A stretch of DNA of 64,000 nt. Origin: a virus (taxonomy: Duplodnaviria; Caudoviricetes). The position numbers and the translations under genes were made by a program. The stretch spans positions 84,086-148,085 of IMG/VR virus record IMGVR_UViG_3300028804_000002; one strand, given 5' to 3'. Under the pieces are notes generated by a model. That model was not told the DNA's origin, did no database searches, and saw only the letters and a program-made list of their open reading frames with translations. This document shows, piece by piece, positions 3,429 through 34,445 of this stretch. The first letter of the stretch is position 1. Each line of letters opens with the position of its first letter.

Positions 3429-3863
3429 ATGCAAAATTTAGAAAAATATAGAAAAAGAAAAAGAGAATATGCTAAAACTCCAGATCAAAGAAAAAAGAGA
3501 ACTGAATATATGAGATTATGGAGAGAAAAAAATAGAGATAAACATAATTTACAAGCTAAAGAATCTCATCATAGAAATAAGCATAAACATATAGATAGAG
3601 TTAGAAGTTATAGTCTTTTAATTAAATATGGTATAACTCTTGAAAATAAACTAGAGATGATTAGATCTCAAAATTTTAAGTGTAAAATTTGTGATAAAGA
3701 ATTTAAAAATAATAGAACTACACATATAGATCATAATCACAAAACTGGAGAAATTAGGGGTATTCTTTGTCATATTTGTAATACCAAATTAGGATGGTAT
3801 GAATTATATAAAAATCAAATAAACCAATATTTAAATGAAGAAAGTAACAAAAAAACCAATTAA
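3429..3863 (+). CDS. Endonuclease VII-family homing endonuclease
   Basis: KYGIT, CKIC, HIDHNHKTGEIRGILCHICNTKLG. Confidence 0.9.
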   Translation: MQNLEKYRKRKREYAKTPDQRKKRTEYMRLWREKNRDKHNLQAKESHHRNKHKHIDRVRSYSLLIKYGITLENKLEMIRSQNFKCKICDKEFKNNRTTHIDHNHKTGEIRGILCHICNTKLGWYELYKNQINQYLNEESNKKTN

Positions 3864-5558: not shown

Positions 5559-6401
5559 CTATTTTAATTCAATAACTTCTAACATAAAAGGATCAATAAG
5601 ATTTTCATTTTTGTCTCTTATGCCTCCGTCATTATTTATAATTTTAATTATTCTAATGATATTCCAGTCTAATTGTTTTTCACTAAGATAAGGTTTTAAT
5701 GGTTTACCCCACATAGTTTTCATAGAACTAGCGATTTGTATAAATCCATCTGAATTATAATTTATTTTCAACTTCTTCCATTCTTCTTCTGATTTAAATA
5801 CTATTTCGTAATTCTTTTCTTTTTTAGGTTCATCAGTTATATAAAAACCTGGTATTGGTGAAGATCCTATAAAGAACATATTTTTATTATTCTTTACATT
5901 ATGATTAGATAAAGAATCTCCGAGAATACCTATTATTTGTTTTGGTAATCTACAATTAGATATTTGCCAATTAGCACCAAATTCTACACAGCATTCTAAA
6001 AATGTCTTAAGTCGAAAAGAAGTATAATCTATCGTTTTAGTAATATCTTTTATATGAATAAAACCTCCTGGTATTAGTCCTTTAGTTCTAAATTTAGTTT
6101 TATTATCATCAATAAATTCATCCACATTTACTTTTTGTCCAACTTTAAAACTATTATAGTTTCTGGTTAGAGTAACTTCATCATCTACTTTTACATTCAT
6201 ATTATATAATGGATCAGCTAATATACTTAATTTATTAAAATCATTAGTAAGTATAGTAAACTGATCGGTATGTATATGGTCACTTGTTATATTTGTGACT
6301 CTACCTATAGAATACTTTGGTATACTTACACCTATTGCTTCATCACATATAACCCATTTATTTATAAGATCATCAATTAATTTTATTTTTACCTTATTCA
6401 T
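5559..6401 (-). CDS. Hypothetical protein
   Basis: 280-aa ORF, overlaps upstream gene stop. Confidence 0.6.
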   Translation of the reverse strand: MNKVKIKLIDDLINKWVICDEAIGVSIPKYSIGRVTNITSDHIHTDQFTILTNDFNKLSILADPLYNMNVKVDDEVTLTRNYNSFKVGQKVNVDEFIDDNKTKFRTKGLIPGGFIHIKDITKTIDYTSFRLKTFLECCVEFGANWQISNCRLPKQIIGILGDSLSNHNVKNNKNMFFIGSSPIPGFYITDEPKKEKNYEIVFKSEEEWKKLKINYNSDGFIQIASSMKTMWGKPLKPYLSEKQLDWNIIRIIKIINNDGGIRDKNENLIDPFMLEVIELK

Positions 6402-10765: not shown

Positions 10766-10856
10766 AATTTTTAATTTAAAAAATAAGGCCCTCTAATTTT
10801 ATTTAAAGGGCCTTTCGGGTTTAAGCATCAGCGGGAAGTGCTAACAATTTAAATAG

Positions 10857-11222
10857 TGGAGGTGTCCGGGGCGAACCGGAGTCCAAACATTGATTAATAA
10901 ACCTATTCTTACAAGCTTAGTACTGTATTTCTACTGCACCGTAAGGGGCTCGAATGCCGAGCGCTCCACCAGATGGTTCAAAACCAACAATTCTGCTTTT
11001 TTGATATCGATTATGTTCCTAAGGAGATACCTACCTTGTGCAATTAAGCGGCCATTTTTACTGAGTAAGAAGAACCTGCTTTTCTGCTGGAGAAAGCCAT
11101 ATTGATGATCTTTGCTCCGTTGTTTGACGTTTTGTCATTTATTGTTTAGTGATTATTTTAAGAATCACTGACTATTGCTTGCAGATTTACCTTTCAAATG
11201 CTGTCAAAACATACACACCCCC
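10857..11222 (-). ncRNA. ssrA: tmRNA (SsrA)
   Basis: 5' GGGGGTG pairs with 3' CACCTCC-A including G3:U70; TTTGAC after the acceptor; T-arm CCGG-TTCGC-CCCGG; internal tag ORF ends ...MAA-TAA (11136-11044). Confidence 0.92.
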
Positions 11223-23565: not shown

Positions 23566-23579
23566 AATAATATTTTTTG

Positions 23580-23653
23580 TGATCCGGATTGGATTCGAAC
23601 CAATGGCCCTCAGCTTAGAAGGCTGATGCTCTATCCAACTGAGCTACCGGACC
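23580..23653 (-). tRNA. tRNA-Arg(TCT)
   Basis: GGTCCGGTAGCTCAGTTGGATAGAGC...CTTCTAA...GGTTCGAATCC; full cloverleaf, CCA not encoded. Confidence 0.95.
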
Positions 23654-23700
23654 AATTATGAAATTATTTAAATTTAAATTAATAATTAATTATTCCAAAG

Positions 23701-23786
23701 TACTGATAAGAGGAATTGAACCTCCACTCGCATTACTGCGAACAGGATTTTAAGTCCTGCGTGTCTACCAGTTCCACCATATCAGC
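23701..23786 (-). tRNA. tRNA-Leu(TAA)
   Basis: GCTGATATGGTGGAACTGGTAGACAC...CTTAAAA, long variable arm, GGTTCAATTCC. Confidence 0.95.
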
Positions 23787-23789
23787 ATG

Positions 23790-23863
23790 TGGACCCACCT
23801 GGGCTCGAACCAGGGACCCGCAGATTATGAGTCTGCTGCTCTAACCGGCTGAGCTATAAGTCC
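23790..23863 (-). tRNA. tRNA with CAT anticodon, probably Ile2 (lysidine)
   Basis: GGACTTATAGCTCAG...CTCATAA; paired G1-C72 and no three consecutive G-C anticodon-stem pairs, so not fMet. Confidence 0.85.
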
Positions 23864-25555: not shown

Positions 25556-25626
25556 AGGTCACAGTTGGATTCGAGCCAAGATAAGTAGTTTTGCAAACTA
25601 CGACATAACCACTCTGACATGCGACC
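25556..25626 (-). tRNA. tRNA-Cys(GCA), slightly degenerate
   Basis: GGTCGCA/TGTGACC-T acceptor, GTAGT-TTGCAAA-ACTAC; T-loop CTCGAAT and one T-stem mismatch. Confidence 0.8.
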
Positions 25627-27871: not shown

Positions 27872-28441
27872 ATGAAAATATGTAGTAAATGTAAAATAGA
27901 TAAAGAATTATCTGAATTTACAAAATCTAAGAAAAAAGTAGATGGTTTAAATAATTATTGTAAAACTTGTTGTAGAGAAATGCATGTAATATGGAGAGAT
28001 AAAAGAAATTCTCCTAACTATAAAAGAAAAATGCCAATAAATATGCAATCTCCAAAAAGACCTGAATTTTGTGGTGAAAATAACCCTAATTGGAAAGGTG
28101 GTAGAACCAAATTATCTGTGCTAATTAAATCACTCGCAGAGTATCATCAATGGAGACAAAATATCTATATTAGAGATGATTATAGATGTCAAATATGTGG
28201 TATAAGAAATGGAGAGCCTCATCAAATAAAATTAGATTGTGATCATATTTATCCATTTAGTAAAATTATGGAGGATTATGATATACAATCAGTAGAGGAT
28301 GCTTTGAATTGTCCAGAAATGTGGAATACTGAGAATGGTCGCATTTTATGTAGAAAATGTCATATTGCTACAGATACTTATGGCTTAAAATTTAATGAAG
28401 GGTATAAGAAATGTGAAAATTATATGAAAAGTAAGACATAA
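27872..28441 (+). CDS. HNH homing endonuclease, inserted against the block orientation
   Basis: CSKC..CKTC Zn finger, GENNPNWKGG, RDDYRCQICG, CDHIYP, NGRILCRKCH. Confidence 0.9.
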   Translation: MKICSKCKIDKELSEFTKSKKKVDGLNNYCKTCCREMHVIWRDKRNSPNYKRKMPINMQSPKRPEFCGENNPNWKGGRTKLSVLIKSLAEYHQWRQNIYIRDDYRCQICGIRNGEPHQIKLDCDHIYPFSKIMEDYDIQSVEDALNCPEMWNTENGRILCRKCHIATDTYGLKFNEGYKKCENYMKSKT

Positions 28442-28774: not shown

Positions 28775-29002
28775 ACTTATTCAATTTTAACTATTAATCT
28801 TATTATTAAAATAGAGCCGTCCTATAGAAATAGGATAGCTTTGTACTACGGCCCCGTAGTAACTGATAGTAATTTAATGTGATTTAGAGAGATATCTTTG
28901 GTGGTAGTATTAAACTACCACCGCCGATATCATATAAGCCGTAAACGAGTAACAGCTATTTCTTGTATCAAAGGTGTGGTTTTACACAATCCTTTTAATT
29001 TT

Positions 29003-29356
29003 TTAATCAATATTAATAAATGCATTTATTATTTCACCATCAGCAAATACTCTACCCTCTGTAAAATATCCATTTTCAAAAGCTTTTTGTATATCTTCTG
29101 GTTTATACCAATGATTTTCATCTCTTACAAAGTATTTAATTTCTGTATTAGATACAATCCATCCTTTAGATGATTTAGATACATTATAAGTGTCAAAAAG
29201 CTTTTGAAATATTCTTGTAATTGCAGATGTAGAAGCAGCTATCAGAGCAGTATCCCAATGTGGAAATATACCTGATTTTTTGTGGAATTCTATTTTTTGA
29301 TTTGCATCTAATAATTTCCACCATTTTAAAGCTCTTGTTCTTAATTCTATATTCAT
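29003..29356 (-). CDS. Hypothetical protein, paralog of 32552
   Basis: ALKWWKLL...PHW...ASTSAI. Confidence 0.6.
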   Translation of the reverse strand: MNIELRTRALKWWKLLDANQKIEFHKKSGIFPHWDTALIAASTSAITRIFQKLFDTYNVSKSSKGWIVSNTEIKYFVRDENHWYKPEDIQKAFENGYFTEGRVFADGEIINAFINID

Positions 29357-29500
29357 AGTAGTAAATTTAAAAAATATGGTTATATCTGCCTTTCATGTTT
29401 ACTGGCGATGAACCCAGCAACCTAATCCAATTAGATAGGAAAACCTCACAACCAGCTCTTATCTTCAGCATCATCTGTTAAGAATCAGAGCTAGTTATTA

Positions 29501-29830
29501 CTAACCTTTTATCATATTACAAATAGGATTGATTAATCTCATTTGTCTTTCATTAAATACTACTACTTGATTTATATAGGCTTCGGGAGTAAAACATTGT
29601 CCATTCCACCAAATAGTATTATAATTCCAATTCTCCTGAATACTAATAGTATGATTAACCATGCCATCAGCTGTTATTCTAAATTGGTCACCATGCTTGG
29701 CTCTGTTGAGATTTTGTACACTAAGTTCCATAAAGCATAGTCTATTTAGGAAATTTTTTAGGTTCTTCTTCGTGAGTATATAGTAGCCGTAACATTTATG
29801 ATTGCCAAACATGTTTGAATGATAATCCAA
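29501..29830 (-). CDS. Hypothetical protein (probably starts at MELSVQ)
   Basis: ORF track. Confidence 0.45.
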   Translation of the reverse strand: MDYHSNMFGNHKCYGYYILTKKNLKNFLNRLCFMELSVQNLNRAKHGDQFRITADGMVNHTISIQENWNYNTIWWNGQCFTPEAYINQVVVFNERQMRLINPICNMIKG

Positions 29831-30144
29831 ACTTCCTGATAACTTAATGTCCCCATGCCATACATTACGGGAGATGGATTAAACCATCCTCCAATACCCA
29901 CAGACATAAGTATAAAGCCCATAATACCAGCAAAAGTGGCCTTATAGGAGTAAATTTCTCTGAAAGATACCACTCCTATACTACGGATATGAGCCTTAAA
30001 CAGGAAATTTACCACAATACTCAAGAGAGCAAAGGGTAAATCAAACACGAAGAGTATTCCACAAATGAAGCCAGCTCCCAATCCTTCTTTATGGTTAGGA
30101 TTAAAACCAGACATATTAAATGCCAAAATAAGTCTTTGTTTCAT
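29758..30144 (-). CDS. Multi-TM membrane protein
   Basis: Three hydrophobic helices. Confidence 0.6.
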   Translation of the reverse strand: MKQRLILAFNMSGFNPNHKEGLGAGFICGILFVFDLPFALLSIVVNFLFKAHIRSIGVVSFREIYSYKATFAGIMGFILMSVGIGGWFNPSPVMYGMGTLSYQEVWIIIQTCLAIINVTATIYSRRRT

Positions 30145-31227
30145 AACATGAATTTTGGTTGAGTTATAAAGAATATAAATATAGCTGACTTTCTATTCAT
30201 GTGGACTCCCTATGGTATATGATTAAGAAAAGCTTTCTACTGAGTGCTTGTCATTTAAAATAATCTTACCAAAATATTATCTTCCACCGAACTATATCTA
30301 TATTTTGACACAAAATACCCTGATTAAAGATGCTTTATCAGCTTTTAAGTTTAAACTCTTAGCAATCAAGGATGAATTCATTTAAAAAGTAGACTGTAAA
30401 CACCTCATAATCTCTTCTTAGCCTCCTCTATACTTTCGTACTAGGTTAGCGGTGGATGCGTCTTTCGACAGCACCGAAGAGGTACAGTTCACTTTGTTAT
30501 TCGTATGCACTAATATCTTGATTATCAACACTATGAATATACGGTGCTATGAGTTTGTATCTCAACTCCGTCAAGCTCTTACGTCTTCTCAGATATTCAG
30601 TAATTTACCATTACTCTTTATAACATTGATAATCAAGAATATAAGCCCCAAGAGAATATAAATACAGTAAGAGTATAAACGTAGAAATACTTTGATTAGC
30701 TCTTATTTTAGCTACGTTTGGACTATAATGTATTTGGGAGCAACTTCAAGTTATAAATAATATTGGAGCGGACGTACTGCTTCACGGCTCTTGCCTTCAA
30801 CTACTAGTTCTATCGTAGTCAATACTATTAATAATTAAAACGAGGTATTAGTGTTTTATTTATTATATATTTATAAATACATAATTTCTTACACTAATAC
30901 CTCTTAAAAAGTTGATCCGTGTGTGCTGATAACCAATCAGCCAGGTTTTTATGATTCTAATTGTCATTAGATATCTGACCCGATTTCTACCCTCAAATAA
31001 TAATACTGCAAATATCACTTTGAGGATCACAACAAATTTTGCAGTTTTGTTGCATAGCCATTTTTATACGTTTATAGTTAATTAGACGTATGTTTCTGGC
31101 CCTTCTAAATAATTTTTATATATTTCTTAACATATCTAGTAAAATATTAATAATAAATTATTAGATTCCGGGTGATCTGCAATGCATAATCTGAATTTTT
31201 GTTGATAAGTATTTTTGATCTATTTAC
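30145..31227 (-). ncRNA. 1.1-kb non-coding array of back-to-back stem-closed modules
   Basis: Inverted repeats at 30172/30290, 30387/30484, 30516/30626 (13 bp perfect), 30677/30712, 30842/30891 (13 bp perfect), 30911/31025. Confidence 0.5.
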
Positions 31228-31890
31228 TTACCAGGGTGAATAATGTTCCATTCTAGACCTATGTTTGGGTTTTGGTCTAATTAATGGCTTTTTTTTACCA
31301 TATGTATATTTGAGTCTTCGTACGATATTCTGACAATTAAGAATACGCTTAATTAAAAGCTCATAATCAAATGTCATTTCACCAATACGAAACTCAAGGG
31401 TGTGTACTCTTTTTGATACCCAACCAGCTTTTACACTACTGACTTGTCTCTCATTAAAACTACCTTTATATCCCCATTTATCAAGCGATTTGAGTATCCA
31501 ATCGTGATCTTGACAACTAATGAAACTATGAATGTCCCAAAAATCACCCATATCAATATGGTAATGAATACCACTTCGATCATTTAATCCACAATGAGTT
31601 TTAAGCCATTCTGAAATGTGATATAAACAAATCATACCTTTTATACCTGGAGGTATTCTGAATCTTTTCTCCATTGAATCATGATAATAATGCATTAAAT
31701 ATGGTATATTTAATGGTTGTAATTGTTCTGTAAGATCGCAATTCCAACAACATTCAACTTCGATTCCAGTGCTATAAGGTAGGTATGCCTTGGCAATAGC
31801 AATAAGCTTTTTGTCGGTTAACGAATGTAAGGCTAAGGGAGATTTATAAATCATCTCCCTTAACGTACCATAATTAATACTCACCGGCAA
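31228..31890 (-). CDS. Putative amidoligase (COOH-NH2 ligase type 2)
   Basis: TGIEVE ... E.R ... GIHYHID ... TLEFR; ATG 31854 is an alternative start. Confidence 0.65.
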   Translation of the reverse strand: MPVSINYGTLREMIYKSPLALHSLTDKKLIAIAKAYLPYSTGIEVECCWNCDLTEQLQPLNIPYLMHYYHDSMEKRFRIPPGIKGMICLYHISEWLKTHCGLNDRSGIHYHIDMGDFWDIHSFISCQDHDWILKSLDKWGYKGSFNERQVSSVKAGWVSKRVHTLEFRIGEMTFDYELLIKRILNCQNIVRRLKYTYGKKKPLIRPKPKHRSRMEHYSPW

Positions 31891-32047
31891 AAGATTTTCC
31901 AGTTATAGCCTTGGTTTCTTTTTTGTTGATCAGCGCCTCCAATTTAGCTTTGTAGTCATCGGCTGTCTCTCCTTTTTGTTTTGGAGGATATTTGATTTGC
32001 TTTTGATTACATACTTCTTGCAGGCCTTTAATTGTTAACTTTGTCAT
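31874..32047 (-). CDS. Small SAP/Rho-N-like protein (57 aa), absent from ORF track
   Basis: MTKLTIKGLQEVCNQKQIKYP...KAKLEALI. Confidence 0.5.
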   Translation of the reverse strand: MTKLTIKGLQEVCNQKQIKYPPKQKGETADDYKAKLEALINKKETKAITGKSFAGEY

Positions 32048-32089
32048 CTCATTTAAGTTTAAAAAGTGATTGTTATGTTTTTAAAAAGT

Positions 32090-32546
32090 TTAATCTTTAT
32101 TTTGTTCTATAGGTATTACTTTAACAGTATAGTTTGTAAGACTATTTTCTTCTGCTGCTAAGTCACCCATTTGATATGCAATTTCGTGTGATCCGTAGCC
32201 CTCAAAATCTTGTCTTAATTGACTAGATAATACACACTTATTATCTTGCCAAACTTCATAATGATATTTCATAAAATGAACTTTAAAAAAATTATTAAAC
32301 ATTAATTTCGTTTACTGTACGTTTAATGTTAATCATATCAAAATGAAGTGTTGGTCCCTCCTTTGTAAAAAAATAATTATATTTAATTTCTGTGCCATTA
32401 CATATAACTATTTTATTACCATAGCTTTTAGCTATTTGAATTCTATTGGAGTCAGTCATATACCACAAAAGTGTACGTGATAATTTAAGTAATTCTTCTT
32501 CTGATTTAAGAAATACTTTATCTCCTTTTTCTGGTATTAGTTTCAT
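32090..32546 (-). CDS. Two small hypothetical proteins (32090-32302, 32295-32546)
   Basis: ORF track; packed operon. Confidence 0.5.
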
Positions 32547-32551
32547 AATAT

Positions 32552-32806
32552 TTAATTTTGTGGACTTATTATTATATGAATCATACTAATAGTTGATGTA
32601 GATGCATCTACCATTTGTAATGTCCAATTTGGCATGATTTTGGTTTGTTTCCAATACTTCTCTTTATCAGTTTCAGATAAACCTCTCCACCATGCTAATG
32701 CTATAGCTCTTTGATTAGGTGGATCAACATATTTTATAGGTAATCCATTTATACCGTTAGTTTTTCCACTTTTCCATTCTTCTTCTGGTATTTCTTGATA
32801 TGGCAT
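32552..32806 (-). CDS. Hypothetical protein, paralog of 29003
   Basis: ALAWWRGL...PNW...ASTSTI. Confidence 0.6.
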   Translation of the reverse strand: MPYQEIPEEEWKSGKTNGINGLPIKYVDPPNQRAIALAWWRGLSETDKEKYWKQTKIMPNWTLQMVDASTSTISMIHIIISPQN

Positions 32807-32817
32807 AAGTATTGAAT

Positions 32818-33230
32818 TTAATTATCTTTGATAAATGTATATATTAAATAGACTAACATGCATATTAGTGCACATGCTAATAAACTCATTATTAAATGAA
32901 ACCAGAACGGTTGAGGCTCAGATTCATGAGATTTAACAAATGTGGCTAATAAATATGATCCTGTAATATATAAACTTAATCCAAGTATGATAAATGTGAT
33001 TTTCTTTAGTTTTGTAATCATTTTATTGATTTATTAAACCAGTCATTAAGAGATATATATTCAAATAGCATAAAAATGAATATAAACCACCAAAATACTG
33101 AACACATGAAAATAGACATTATTACATCTCCATTTGTCACTGTTCCAAATTCTCTTTTGTACCATCTTAGGTTAAATGGAATAGATATTATCCATCCAAC
33201 TATCCATAAGACTATTAAGAATGTTGCCAT
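32818..33230 (-). CDS. Two small 2-TM membrane proteins (32818-33021, 33018-33230)
   Basis: Hydrophobic helices. Confidence 0.55.
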
Positions 33231-34322: not shown

Positions 34323-34371
34323 AGGTTAGACATATAATATGTTTCGACTATTTAAGTCTCATCAGTAACCT
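34323..34371 (-). ncRNA. Type I hammerhead ribozyme
   Basis: Minus strand AGGUUA-CUGAUGA-GACU(uaaau)AGUC-GAAA-CAUA(uua)UAUG-UC/UAACCU; all core nucleotides and three stems intact; GUC cleavage between 34329 and 34328. Confidence 0.92.
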
Positions 34372-34445
34372 TTGGTTATTGAAGGGTGTAATATCATCCT
34401 CACACACCTTTATTTTGATGAAAAACTAATGTTTTAGTGTTATAT

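Follow-up and report, generated by a model that had tools for sequence, protein, structure and literature searches.

A predicted structured RNA with a conserved micro-ORF and a truncated hatchet-type ribozyme copy in a gene-free stretch of a crAss-like phage genome

What fills 1.1 kb of an otherwise gene-dense phage genome in which no plausible gene is found? The question is raised by positions 30145 to 31227 of a 64,000-nucleotide (nt) stretch of viral DNA (the window), which comprises bases 84086-148085 of a virus record of 148 kb that carries a rating of complete (IMG/VR record IMGVR_UViG_3300028804_000002). The large plus-strand genes of the window match crAss-type terminase, portal, and major capsid families, by which the source phage is classed as crAss-like. 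Phages of this kind are among the most abundant human-gut viruses, and their gene regulation is largely unknown. An earlier, sequence-only reading had described the stretch as an array of adjacent, self-contained small-RNA units, each closed by its own inverted repeat and released by RNase III. Here, we report a different reading, to which we give a probability of roughly 70%: the stretch consists of three unrelated pieces, all on the minus strand with the surrounding early-type genes, namely, a conserved structured RNA (element A), a truncated hatchet-type ribozyme copy (element B), and a lineage-specific segment (part C).

Layout of the locus

Minus-strand genes run from ~34.6 kb to 5.6 kb of the window, so the stretch is to be read on the minus strand. 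Both flanking genes lie on that strand, one upstream (31890-31228; a 220-amino-acid [aa] amidoligase-like protein, described below) and one downstream (30144-29758; a 128-aa membrane protein). The earlier statement that there is no credible open reading frame (ORF) holds for frames of 60 aa or more, none of which was found in 30145-31227, and fails for a conserved 8-codon micro-ORF at 31187-31161. Some crAss-like phages recode stop codons, and an alternative genetic code hiding a gene was considered and rejected: 15 to 18 TAA codons occur in each of the six frames of 30145-31227, alongside TAG and TGA codons, so that reassigning any one stop codon would neither open a frame nor rescue a gene. 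No tRNA, transfer-messenger RNA (tmRNA), or clustered regularly interspaced short palindromic repeat (CRISPR) array was found in these positions, nor any tandem or CRISPR-like repeat; the earlier reading had likewise argued against CRISPR. In blastn searches, 29000-33000 matched none of the known phage genomes.

Relatives of the locus were taken to be the contigs encoding the closest homologues of the 220-aa upstream protein (identity to the window, 81% for L007 and L008, 99% for L009, 59% for L010, 61% for L011 to L013, 58% for L014, 56% for L015 and L016, 50% for L032, and 48% for L033); none were found via the downstream 128-aa protein. When the whole stretch was compared with every locus as six-frame translations, matches were at the nucleotide level only, with equal similarity across the six frames, which argues for constraint at the nucleotide rather than the protein level. 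Positions 31227-30829 are kept in L007, the closest full-length relative, at 83%, equal to the level of the gene (blastn), and homology of the window to both L007 and L008 stops at 30829. Beyond this point, 30828-29005 shares nothing with L007, which has 557 unrelated bases there instead. Judged by these comparisons, 30828-29005 is a hypervariable cargo slot. It is flanked by the terminator of element A on one side and, on the other, by a conserved block that precedes an HNH endonuclease gene on the opposite strand (27872-28441), and it holds different small genes in each relative (window, 29005-30828; L007, 7048-7603; L010, 7060-7695). Within the slot, two blocks match L010, 30664-30627 (38 nt, 100%) and 30528-30504 (25 nt, 96%), and the gene neighbouring the L010 ribozyme domain is only 73% identical to that of the window. 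Relative to the amidoligase-like gene, the ribozyme blocks lie upstream in L011 and L015 and downstream in L010 and L009. Elements with nothing in common, brought together as a mosaic in a hypervariable cargo slot, can thus look like an array of modules.

Element A

The features of element A are as follows.

31197-30830, minus strand: element A (~370 nt), kept after the amidoligase-like gene in seven diverged relatives
31161-31187, minus strand: micro-ORF ATG CAT TGC AGA TCA CCC GGA ATC TAA (MHCRSPGI*), recognized by R-S-P conservation
30904-31100, minus strand: folded core of six helices (RNAalifold consensus, covariation, and single-sequence folds)
31100-31097/31060-31057, minus strand: helix H1
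31091-31086/31071-31066, minus strand: helix H2
31053-31047/31035-31029, minus strand: helix H3
31027-30989, minus strand: helix H4, loop with conserved UUGCAG
30982-30941, minus strand: helix H5, with an inner hairpin
30941-30925, minus strand: helix H6, loop UUGGUUA
30924-30904, minus strand: conserved single strand ACACACGGAUCAACUUUUUAA
30830-30903, minus strand: terminator-like hairpin, arms 30903-30891 and 30854-30842, followed by GUUUUAAUUAUU

Element A aligns behind the homologous gene in L007, L010, L011, L014, and L015; the whole unit is also readable in L033, and its 3' half only in L032. The gene products of these relatives are only 48 to 81% identical to that of the window, and the alignment (6 aligned relatives; 6 to 8 sequences overall, from one clade) shows conserved blocks alternating with variable sequence. 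RNAalifold predicted H1, H2, H3, H5, and H6 from the 6 relatives, giving 28 pairs for testing, and folding each sequence singly yields H4, the inner hairpin of H5, and H6 every time. Over the 28 pairs, 89% of cells are paired, versus 30 to 38% when partners are slid by 1 to 3 columns; changes on both sides occur in 17 pairs, versus 3 to 4 in the slid controls, and none of 500 column shuffles reached the observed values. The alignment holds 21 G-U cells that would be A-C on the opposite strand, so the fold is specific to the minus-strand RNA. The window sequence of 31197-30830 folds at −88 kcal/mol (z, −6.27; 0 of 100 dinucleotide shuffles as good).

The micro-ORF starts 40 nt past the stop codon of the upstream gene and is separated from H1 by ~60 nt of AU-rich, poorly conserved sequence. 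An ATG-started frame of 8 to 11 codons with invariant R-S-P is present in all seven sequences that keep the 5' part of element A (peptides MHCRSPGI, MHCRSPGF, MLKIRSPG, MNRIRSPV, MIRIRSPDILY, MNRIRSPVSY, and, in L033, MNSIRSPG). Ser is encoded by UCA, UCG, or AGU and Pro by CCC, CCU, or CCA; changes within R-S-P are synonymous only, including a switch from TCN to AGT, a pattern that points to selection acting on the peptide rather than the RNA sequence.

At the other end of element A, a hairpin with a U tract is found in the 6 aligned relatives and is also readable in L033. The sequences of its arms differ among relatives, the one exception being the pair formed by the window and L007, which is its closest relative, and the segment from H6 to the U tract folds at −28 to −34 kcal/mol across relatives. 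Rfam 15 (E values up to 10) returned nothing but Hatchet for 29500-32000, and no Rfam model matched the counterpart region of element A in L007, L009, or L010. Right after the terminator, a T-arm-like minihelix (..GAUGGUACUNUUGGUUCGAUUCCAA..) occurs in L011 (3655-3700), L014 (~6090-6135), and L033 (3960-3995); it is not called as a tRNA by ARAGORN, and the window is without it.

Structure, micro-ORF conservation, and terminator are shown by comparative sequence analysis; element A is a well-supported new structured RNA of crAss-like phages, and we read it as acting in cis. In the model that we infer for its regulatory logic, it would work as a conditional terminator (attenuator), or else as an end-of-operon RNA, and set how much transcription enters the downstream variable cargo region, and its input would be translation of, or stalling on, the Arg-Ser-Pro micro-ORF or a ligand of the fold. 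Known systems for comparison are the trp and his leaders, TnaC, SecM (IRAGP), and arrest motifs of the RAPP/RAPG type. As in leader-peptide attenuators, a very short conserved ORF precedes helices and an intrinsic terminator, and the conserved I-R-S-P-G resembles arrest motifs of the Arg-x-Pro type. Unlike in attenuators, micro-ORF and terminator are separated by ~200 nt of helices that fold independently and covary, and the unit sits behind a gene rather than heading an operon; the peptide, at 8 to 11 residues, is also short against leader and arrest peptides. With its peptide-level constraint, the micro-ORF makes translation-coupled termination directly testable.

Several results weigh against this model of element A. 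A predicted long-range GAUC-GAUC contact fails in L014, L015, and L033, and no conserved alternative pairing that would serve as an antiterminator was established among the relatives. The support comes from the 6 to 8 sequences of one clade; element A is absent from the distant relatives L001 to L004 (38 to 44% identity) and from L030, and a scan of viral contigs with a pattern of the H5/H6 block gave 7 matches, all of them chance matches inside coding sequence.

The alternative that survives best, although we consider it unlikely, is that element A is a free-standing gene for a stable non-coding RNA of ~300 nt with its own promoter and terminator, acting in trans. Its large multi-helix fold, conserved loops (UUGCAG and UUGGUUA), and strong terminator are like those of many bacterial and phage non-coding RNA genes, and the AU-rich 60 nt between micro-ORF and H1 could host a promoter. 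However, no conserved promoter motif was seen there, and the fixed position of the unit 40 nt behind one gene, together with a micro-ORF constrained as a peptide, fits a role in cis. This alternative touches only the function of element A and is compatible with the remainder of the three-piece reading.

Element B

The hatchet ribozyme is said to go back to Weinberg et al. in 2015. To our knowledge, published hatchets all share one topology, and we know of no biological role for them. We compared element B with the Rfam model (RF02678), with the biochemically studied Ht-1 construct AUCAGUGA-CAA-ACAUG-UGGGGCUUAUAU...UAUUAGUGC-AGACGUUAAAAC-CAUGU (from primers; Li et al. 2015, PMC4604424), and with the crystal structure, from which the residue numbering is taken (Zheng et al. 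2019, PMC6561176). The features of the window copy and its surroundings are as follows.

30751-30829, minus strand: lineage-specific spacer between terminator and ribozyme, common only to L009 and identical there
30750-30751, minus strand: junction of a 72-nt deletion, from comparison with L009
30659-30750, minus strand: remainder of a variable insert, placed inside P2 in intact copies, from comparison with L009; holds the hairpin 30724-30712/30684-30672
30492-30658, minus strand: hatchet-type 3' domain (Rfam RF02678 match and identity to Ht-1)
30658-30651, minus strand: 3' strand of P2, UAUUCUCU
30650-30646 and 30645-30639, minus strand: UGGGG and CUUAUAU
30638-30626/30528-30516, minus strand: arms of P4, around a 97-nt insert
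30515-30507, minus strand: UAUUAGUGC, followed by an A-rich tail to 30492

The Hatchet model matches 30499-30650 on the minus strand with 26.1 bits over model positions 32-128 of 133; the gathering score, set for the full model, is 51 and is not reached by the window copy. Within 30650-30507, the copy agrees with the published Ht-1 construct in every letter of UGGGGCUUAUAU and UAUUAGUGC. The copy keeps the L2/P3/L3/P4 core (UGGG, a G-U-closed P3, AUAU/UAUU, G63, and C64); A65 is also kept, and G66 is U. P1, the cleavage site, the 3-nt linker, and the 5' strand of P2 are lacking. L009, a contig from run SRR13225480, is identical to the window over 550 plus 242 nt flanking 30751|30750 and has 72 extra bases between them (L009, 4883-4954) that contain UUACUG-UGAGAAU-CAGUAA-CAU-AGAGAAUA; the counterpart of 30659-30750 in L009 sits between AGAGAAUA and UAUUCUCU and folds inside that helix. 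By sequence comparison, element B (30750-30492) thus corresponds to two-thirds of a hatchet-type self-cleaving ribozyme, counted from its 3' end. With the 72 deleted nt went P1 and the scissile site as well as the linker and one strand of P2, so the window copy should be catalytically dead. Other degenerate versions are found in L007 and L015. L007 has kept no more than the final 14 nt of the 3' domain, and its P1 half precedes a 64-aa ORF and a small membrane ORF. The deletion allele of the window and the intact allele of L009 form a natural comparison pair. An Rfam search found no other hatchet in this genome and, in five related virus records, no canonical hatchet above threshold.

Further copies were collected by pattern scans seeded on the conserved blocks, giving at least 10 other copies (~12 sequences compared), with L010, L017, L018 (3343-3558), L019, L024, L028 (2461-2701), L009, L011, L027, and others making up the intact set. 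The order in intact copies is P1, CAU or CAA, AGAGAAUA, an insert, UAUUCUCU, UGGGG, P3, L3, P4, UAUUAGUGC, and an A-rich tail. P1 is a 6-bp hairpin, U(C/U)ACUG-UGAGAAU-CAGU(G/A)A, whose loop L1 is UGAGAAU (UGUAAAU or UGAAAAU in two copies), and the linker is CAU in most copies, CAA in L023 and L026, and UAU in L017. Covariation is seen at two positions of P1 (UCACUG/CAGUGA, UUACUG/CAGUAA, and UCACCG/CGGUGA) and at two of P4 (U-A to C-G, and G-C to A-U in L011 and L015). P2 pairs AGAGAAUA, right after the linker, with UAUUCUCU, right before UGGGG, and encloses an insert of 51 to 252 nt; its distal pairs differ yet stay complementary in 9 of 9 copies. The P4 insert ranges from 5 to 177 nt. In L017 (10845-11066), a 73-codon ORF lies within the P2 insert, that is, a gene inside a ribozyme loop.

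The likeness of the intact copies to Ht-1/env10 is nearly letter-perfect and extends over the 6-bp P1, the loop UGAGAAU, the linker C-A-N, UGGG, the G-U-closed P3, L3 (A36, U37, A38, and U39 opposite A57, U58, and U59), P4, and GUGC. In env10/Ht-1 numbering, the residues present are U1-A19, A3-U17, C20, A21, U28-G31, the G32-U62 wobble, A36-U58, U37-A57, A38, U39, U59, G63, and C64, and AUCAGUGACA, UGGGGCUUAUAU, and UAUUAGUGC are identical between Ht-1/env10 and the intact relatives. Hatchets have been reported mainly from metagenomes and Crassvirales, with which the host group agrees. The intact copies depart from canonical hatchets in P2: there, the 3' end is the partner of the five bases that follow the linker, whereas in the relatives AGAGAAUA pairs locally across the insert. 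GCAG is GCGU or GCAU in the relatives, and scores of 20 to 26 bits compare with the Rfam cutoff of 51 (3' domain, 23.8 and 20.6 bits in two relatives). The model scores the halves of the L018 record separately, at 20.6 and 17.3 bits, the latter being the P1 half.

As read from these alignments, the strand order is rearranged beyond any circular permutation, and no hatchet variant with this order was found in the literature searched. Natural non-circular permutations have been shown for hammerheads (Eckert, Friedrich, Weinberg, and Weinberg 2023, PMC10085705), the only ribozymes for which they are shown in that literature; the same paper found no promising candidates for the missing twister permutations and mentions the hatchet only in its introduction. 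In both cases the ribozyme core is kept while the order of helix strands changes beyond circular permutation, but the hammerhead forms are validated, whereas the hatchet form is predicted from sequence. By analogy with canonical hatchets, intact copies would cut just 5' of P1, and the small-gene message downstream would be released with a 5'-hydroxyl end that bears the folded ribozyme; it is by the same analogy that we infer self-cleavage of the rearranged form. An ORF of 42 to 105 aa begins 18 to 38 nt past GUGC in 7 of 10 copies, and the predicted role of this branch, placed 18 to 38 nt ahead of small phage genes, is to free the message and remain as its structured 5' end. The setting resembles the ribozyme-rich phage neighbourhoods of hammerhead- and twister-associated genes (RAGATH motifs; Weinberg et al. 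2015 and 2017, PMC5737381) in its ribozyme-headed early cassettes of small ORFs; unlike there, neither ribozyme of the window (hatchet or hammerhead) reaches its Rfam threshold.

The fuller proposal, that the intact relatives are a natural, active, strand-rearranged hatchet and, separately, that element A represents a new class of conditional terminators coupled to an Arg-Ser-Pro micro-ORF in phages of Bacteroidota, is tentative, and we hold it at somewhat less than even odds. If it is true, the hatchet would be the second ribozyme class with a non-circular permutation, counts based on Rfam would overlook a whole hatchet branch in crAss-like phages, and the differently wired P2 would serve as a natural experiment from which the essential parts of the fold could be learned. 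On the ribozyme side, the points that tell against it begin with the canonical 3' partner of P2: none of the 10 copies has an AGAG partner, complementary to UCUCU, within 70 nt downstream. Conserved hatchet positions are altered in the relatives (U predominates at A22, G at A65, and U at G66). The core is near-invariant, so that most of its pairs carry no covariation information, and this invariance could stem from recent horizontal spread or protein binding. As for the truncation of the window copy, the 72 nt by which it differs from L009 could reflect variation within the population or an error of assembly.

An alternative that we regard as improbable takes the hatchet-like element as a hairpin recognized by a protein or polymerase (a promoter or leader for small early genes) or as a DNA site of a mobile cassette. 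It would account for a near-invariant core across phages whose genes are 50 to 70% identical, for the occurrence of one copy per genome at varied positions but always just upstream of a small ORF, and for the altered hatchet positions and absent canonical P2. Against it, the match includes the loop and bulge nucleotides that, in the crystal structure, make tertiary contacts (L1 UGAGAAU, C20, A21, UGGG, A38, U39, U59, G63, and C64), P1, P2, and P4 covary as RNA helices, and P4 and P2 inserts of 5 to 252 nt would not be easily tolerated by a DNA cruciform or promoter.

Part C

30145-30506, minus strand: part C, untranslated sequence on the 5' side of the 128-aa membrane-protein gene that starts at 30144

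Part C contains a three-way fold of ~110 nt at 30495-30386 with two GAAA tetraloops. It showed no nucleotide (blastn) or six-frame protein similarity to any fetched relative and no Rfam 15 match (E values up to 10, 29500-32000), and a scan of viral contigs with a pattern of the GNRA domain gave no match. A likeness of 30445-30433 to the sarcin-ricin loop was rejected as chance; the 5' strand and the closing pair of the tetraloop match, and the 3' strand does not. Part C is lineage-specific, with no detectable constraint, and may be either the long leader of the next gene or decayed cargo.

Alternative readings of the whole stretch

The stems on which the sequence-only reading was built mostly exist. 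An inverted-repeat search recovered 30516/30626, the arms of P4 (13 bp perfect, extendable to 22 nt at 82%), the perfect 13-bp repeat 30842/30891, and 30677/30712, found as 30672/30712 (13 nt, 85%); the 30387/30484 stem closes the minimum-energy fold of 30380-30500. For 30172/30290, an AT-rich 12/13 match exists that is absent from the listing of that search, and 30911/31025 is not a unit, since its span crosses helices H4-H6 of one conserved ~370-nt fold. The stems do not, however, close adjacent, self-contained, equivalent modules; they are the terminator, P4 of the ribozyme, the hairpin in the P2 insert, and inner helices of the large fold. The starts of the proposed units share no sequence, as had been said, but the architecture said to be common to them fails when compared with relatives.

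Function at the RNA level, the other part of that reading, is supported, on the minus strand, by elements A and B, which are structured and conserved, with covariation and strand-specific G-U pairs. Folding against dinucleotide shuffles, which had been suggested as a check, is very strong for element A. For 30500-30649 it is moderate (z, −2.9), at 30380-30500 it becomes marginal (z, −2.45; 4 of 200 shuffles), and over 30145-30500 as a whole it is not significant (z, −1.22). Sliding-window folding z values are uneven over 30145-31227, and equally strong folds lie inside the flanking genes. Micro-ORFs with ribosome footprints had been named as evidence that would speak against the small-RNA array; the conserved, putatively translated Arg-Ser-Pro micro-ORF goes part of that way.

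RNase III processing of T7 early mRNA and pre-rRNA is established, and the array would be one long precursor cut by the host enzyme at closing stems to release at least six small RNAs (decoys or antisense RNAs). We give this very little credence. The transcribed strand does have several 12- to 13-bp stems, P3 and P4 of the ribozyme stack into an irregular ~20-bp helix that RNase III could in principle cut, and hairpins between cistrons of a phage early transcript recall the T7 and pre-rRNA sites. Those stems are better explained by their identities given above, they reach only 12 to 13 bp, and, unlike at the T7 and pre-rRNA sites, no conserved internal-loop hairpin of the RNase III type is common to the units. 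Elements A and B are separate, and the parts of the stretch are differently placed in relatives rather than kept together; the interiors are either wholly constrained (element A) or hypervariable (P4 inserts), unlike conserved small-RNA bodies, and none is copied elsewhere in the 148-kb genome. RNA cutting, where it is implied by the sequence, is ribozyme self-cleavage and not cleavage by RNase III, and its site is lost in the window.

A last reading, in which decay of coding sequence or neutral spacer accounts for most of the stretch and the stems arose by chance, is just as improbable for the whole, given that elements A and B are conserved at least as well as neighbouring genes, with compensatory changes and similarity equal in all six frames, although AT-rich palindromes are common in a genome of 25 to 35% G+C, some sliding-window z values are near zero while flanking genes fold as strongly, and part C, being without relatives, may be a case of it on its own.

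Genome context

We prefer the three-piece reading, and the following observations concern the genes and RNAs around the stretch. G+C content is 22 to 38% throughout the window. The 220-aa upstream protein (31228-31890, minus strand) has more than 400 homologues and carries E-x-E, H-x-H, and E-F-R motifs. It had no match in Pfam, PHROGs, or a relaxed Pfam scan; in a language-model look-up, Amidoligase_2 was found on 20 to 24% of the members of its nearest Atlas clusters, which makes the protein a candidate member of that family as a lead only. An intron splitting the flanking genes was rejected, the upstream protein being complete against its homologues and no group I or II model matching.

Strong folds also occur inside both flanking genes. 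A long near-perfect hairpin (31310-31397, minus strand) lies within the 3' coding part of the amidoligase-like gene, and the 161 nt that hold it (31240-31400) reach −41.8 kcal/mol, a value (z, −5.85) that none of 200 shuffles equalled. A further outlier, 29900-30049, lies inside the downstream membrane-protein gene (z, −5.6).

The phage encodes a tmRNA (10854-11222, minus strand; 72.9 bits) and four tRNAs (23579-23863 and 25556-25626, minus strand); the tRNA at 25556-25626, with anticodon GCA (Cys), scores 39.6 bits with Rfam and is not called by ARAGORN. Sub-threshold hammerhead matches lie at 34323-34397, 3.7 kb upstream of the studied stretch and on the same strand (Hammerhead_1, 24.1 bits, cutoff 34; RAGATH-1 hammerhead, 26.7 bits, cutoff 56), and the relative L010 has a hammerhead match of equal score at 3621-3669.

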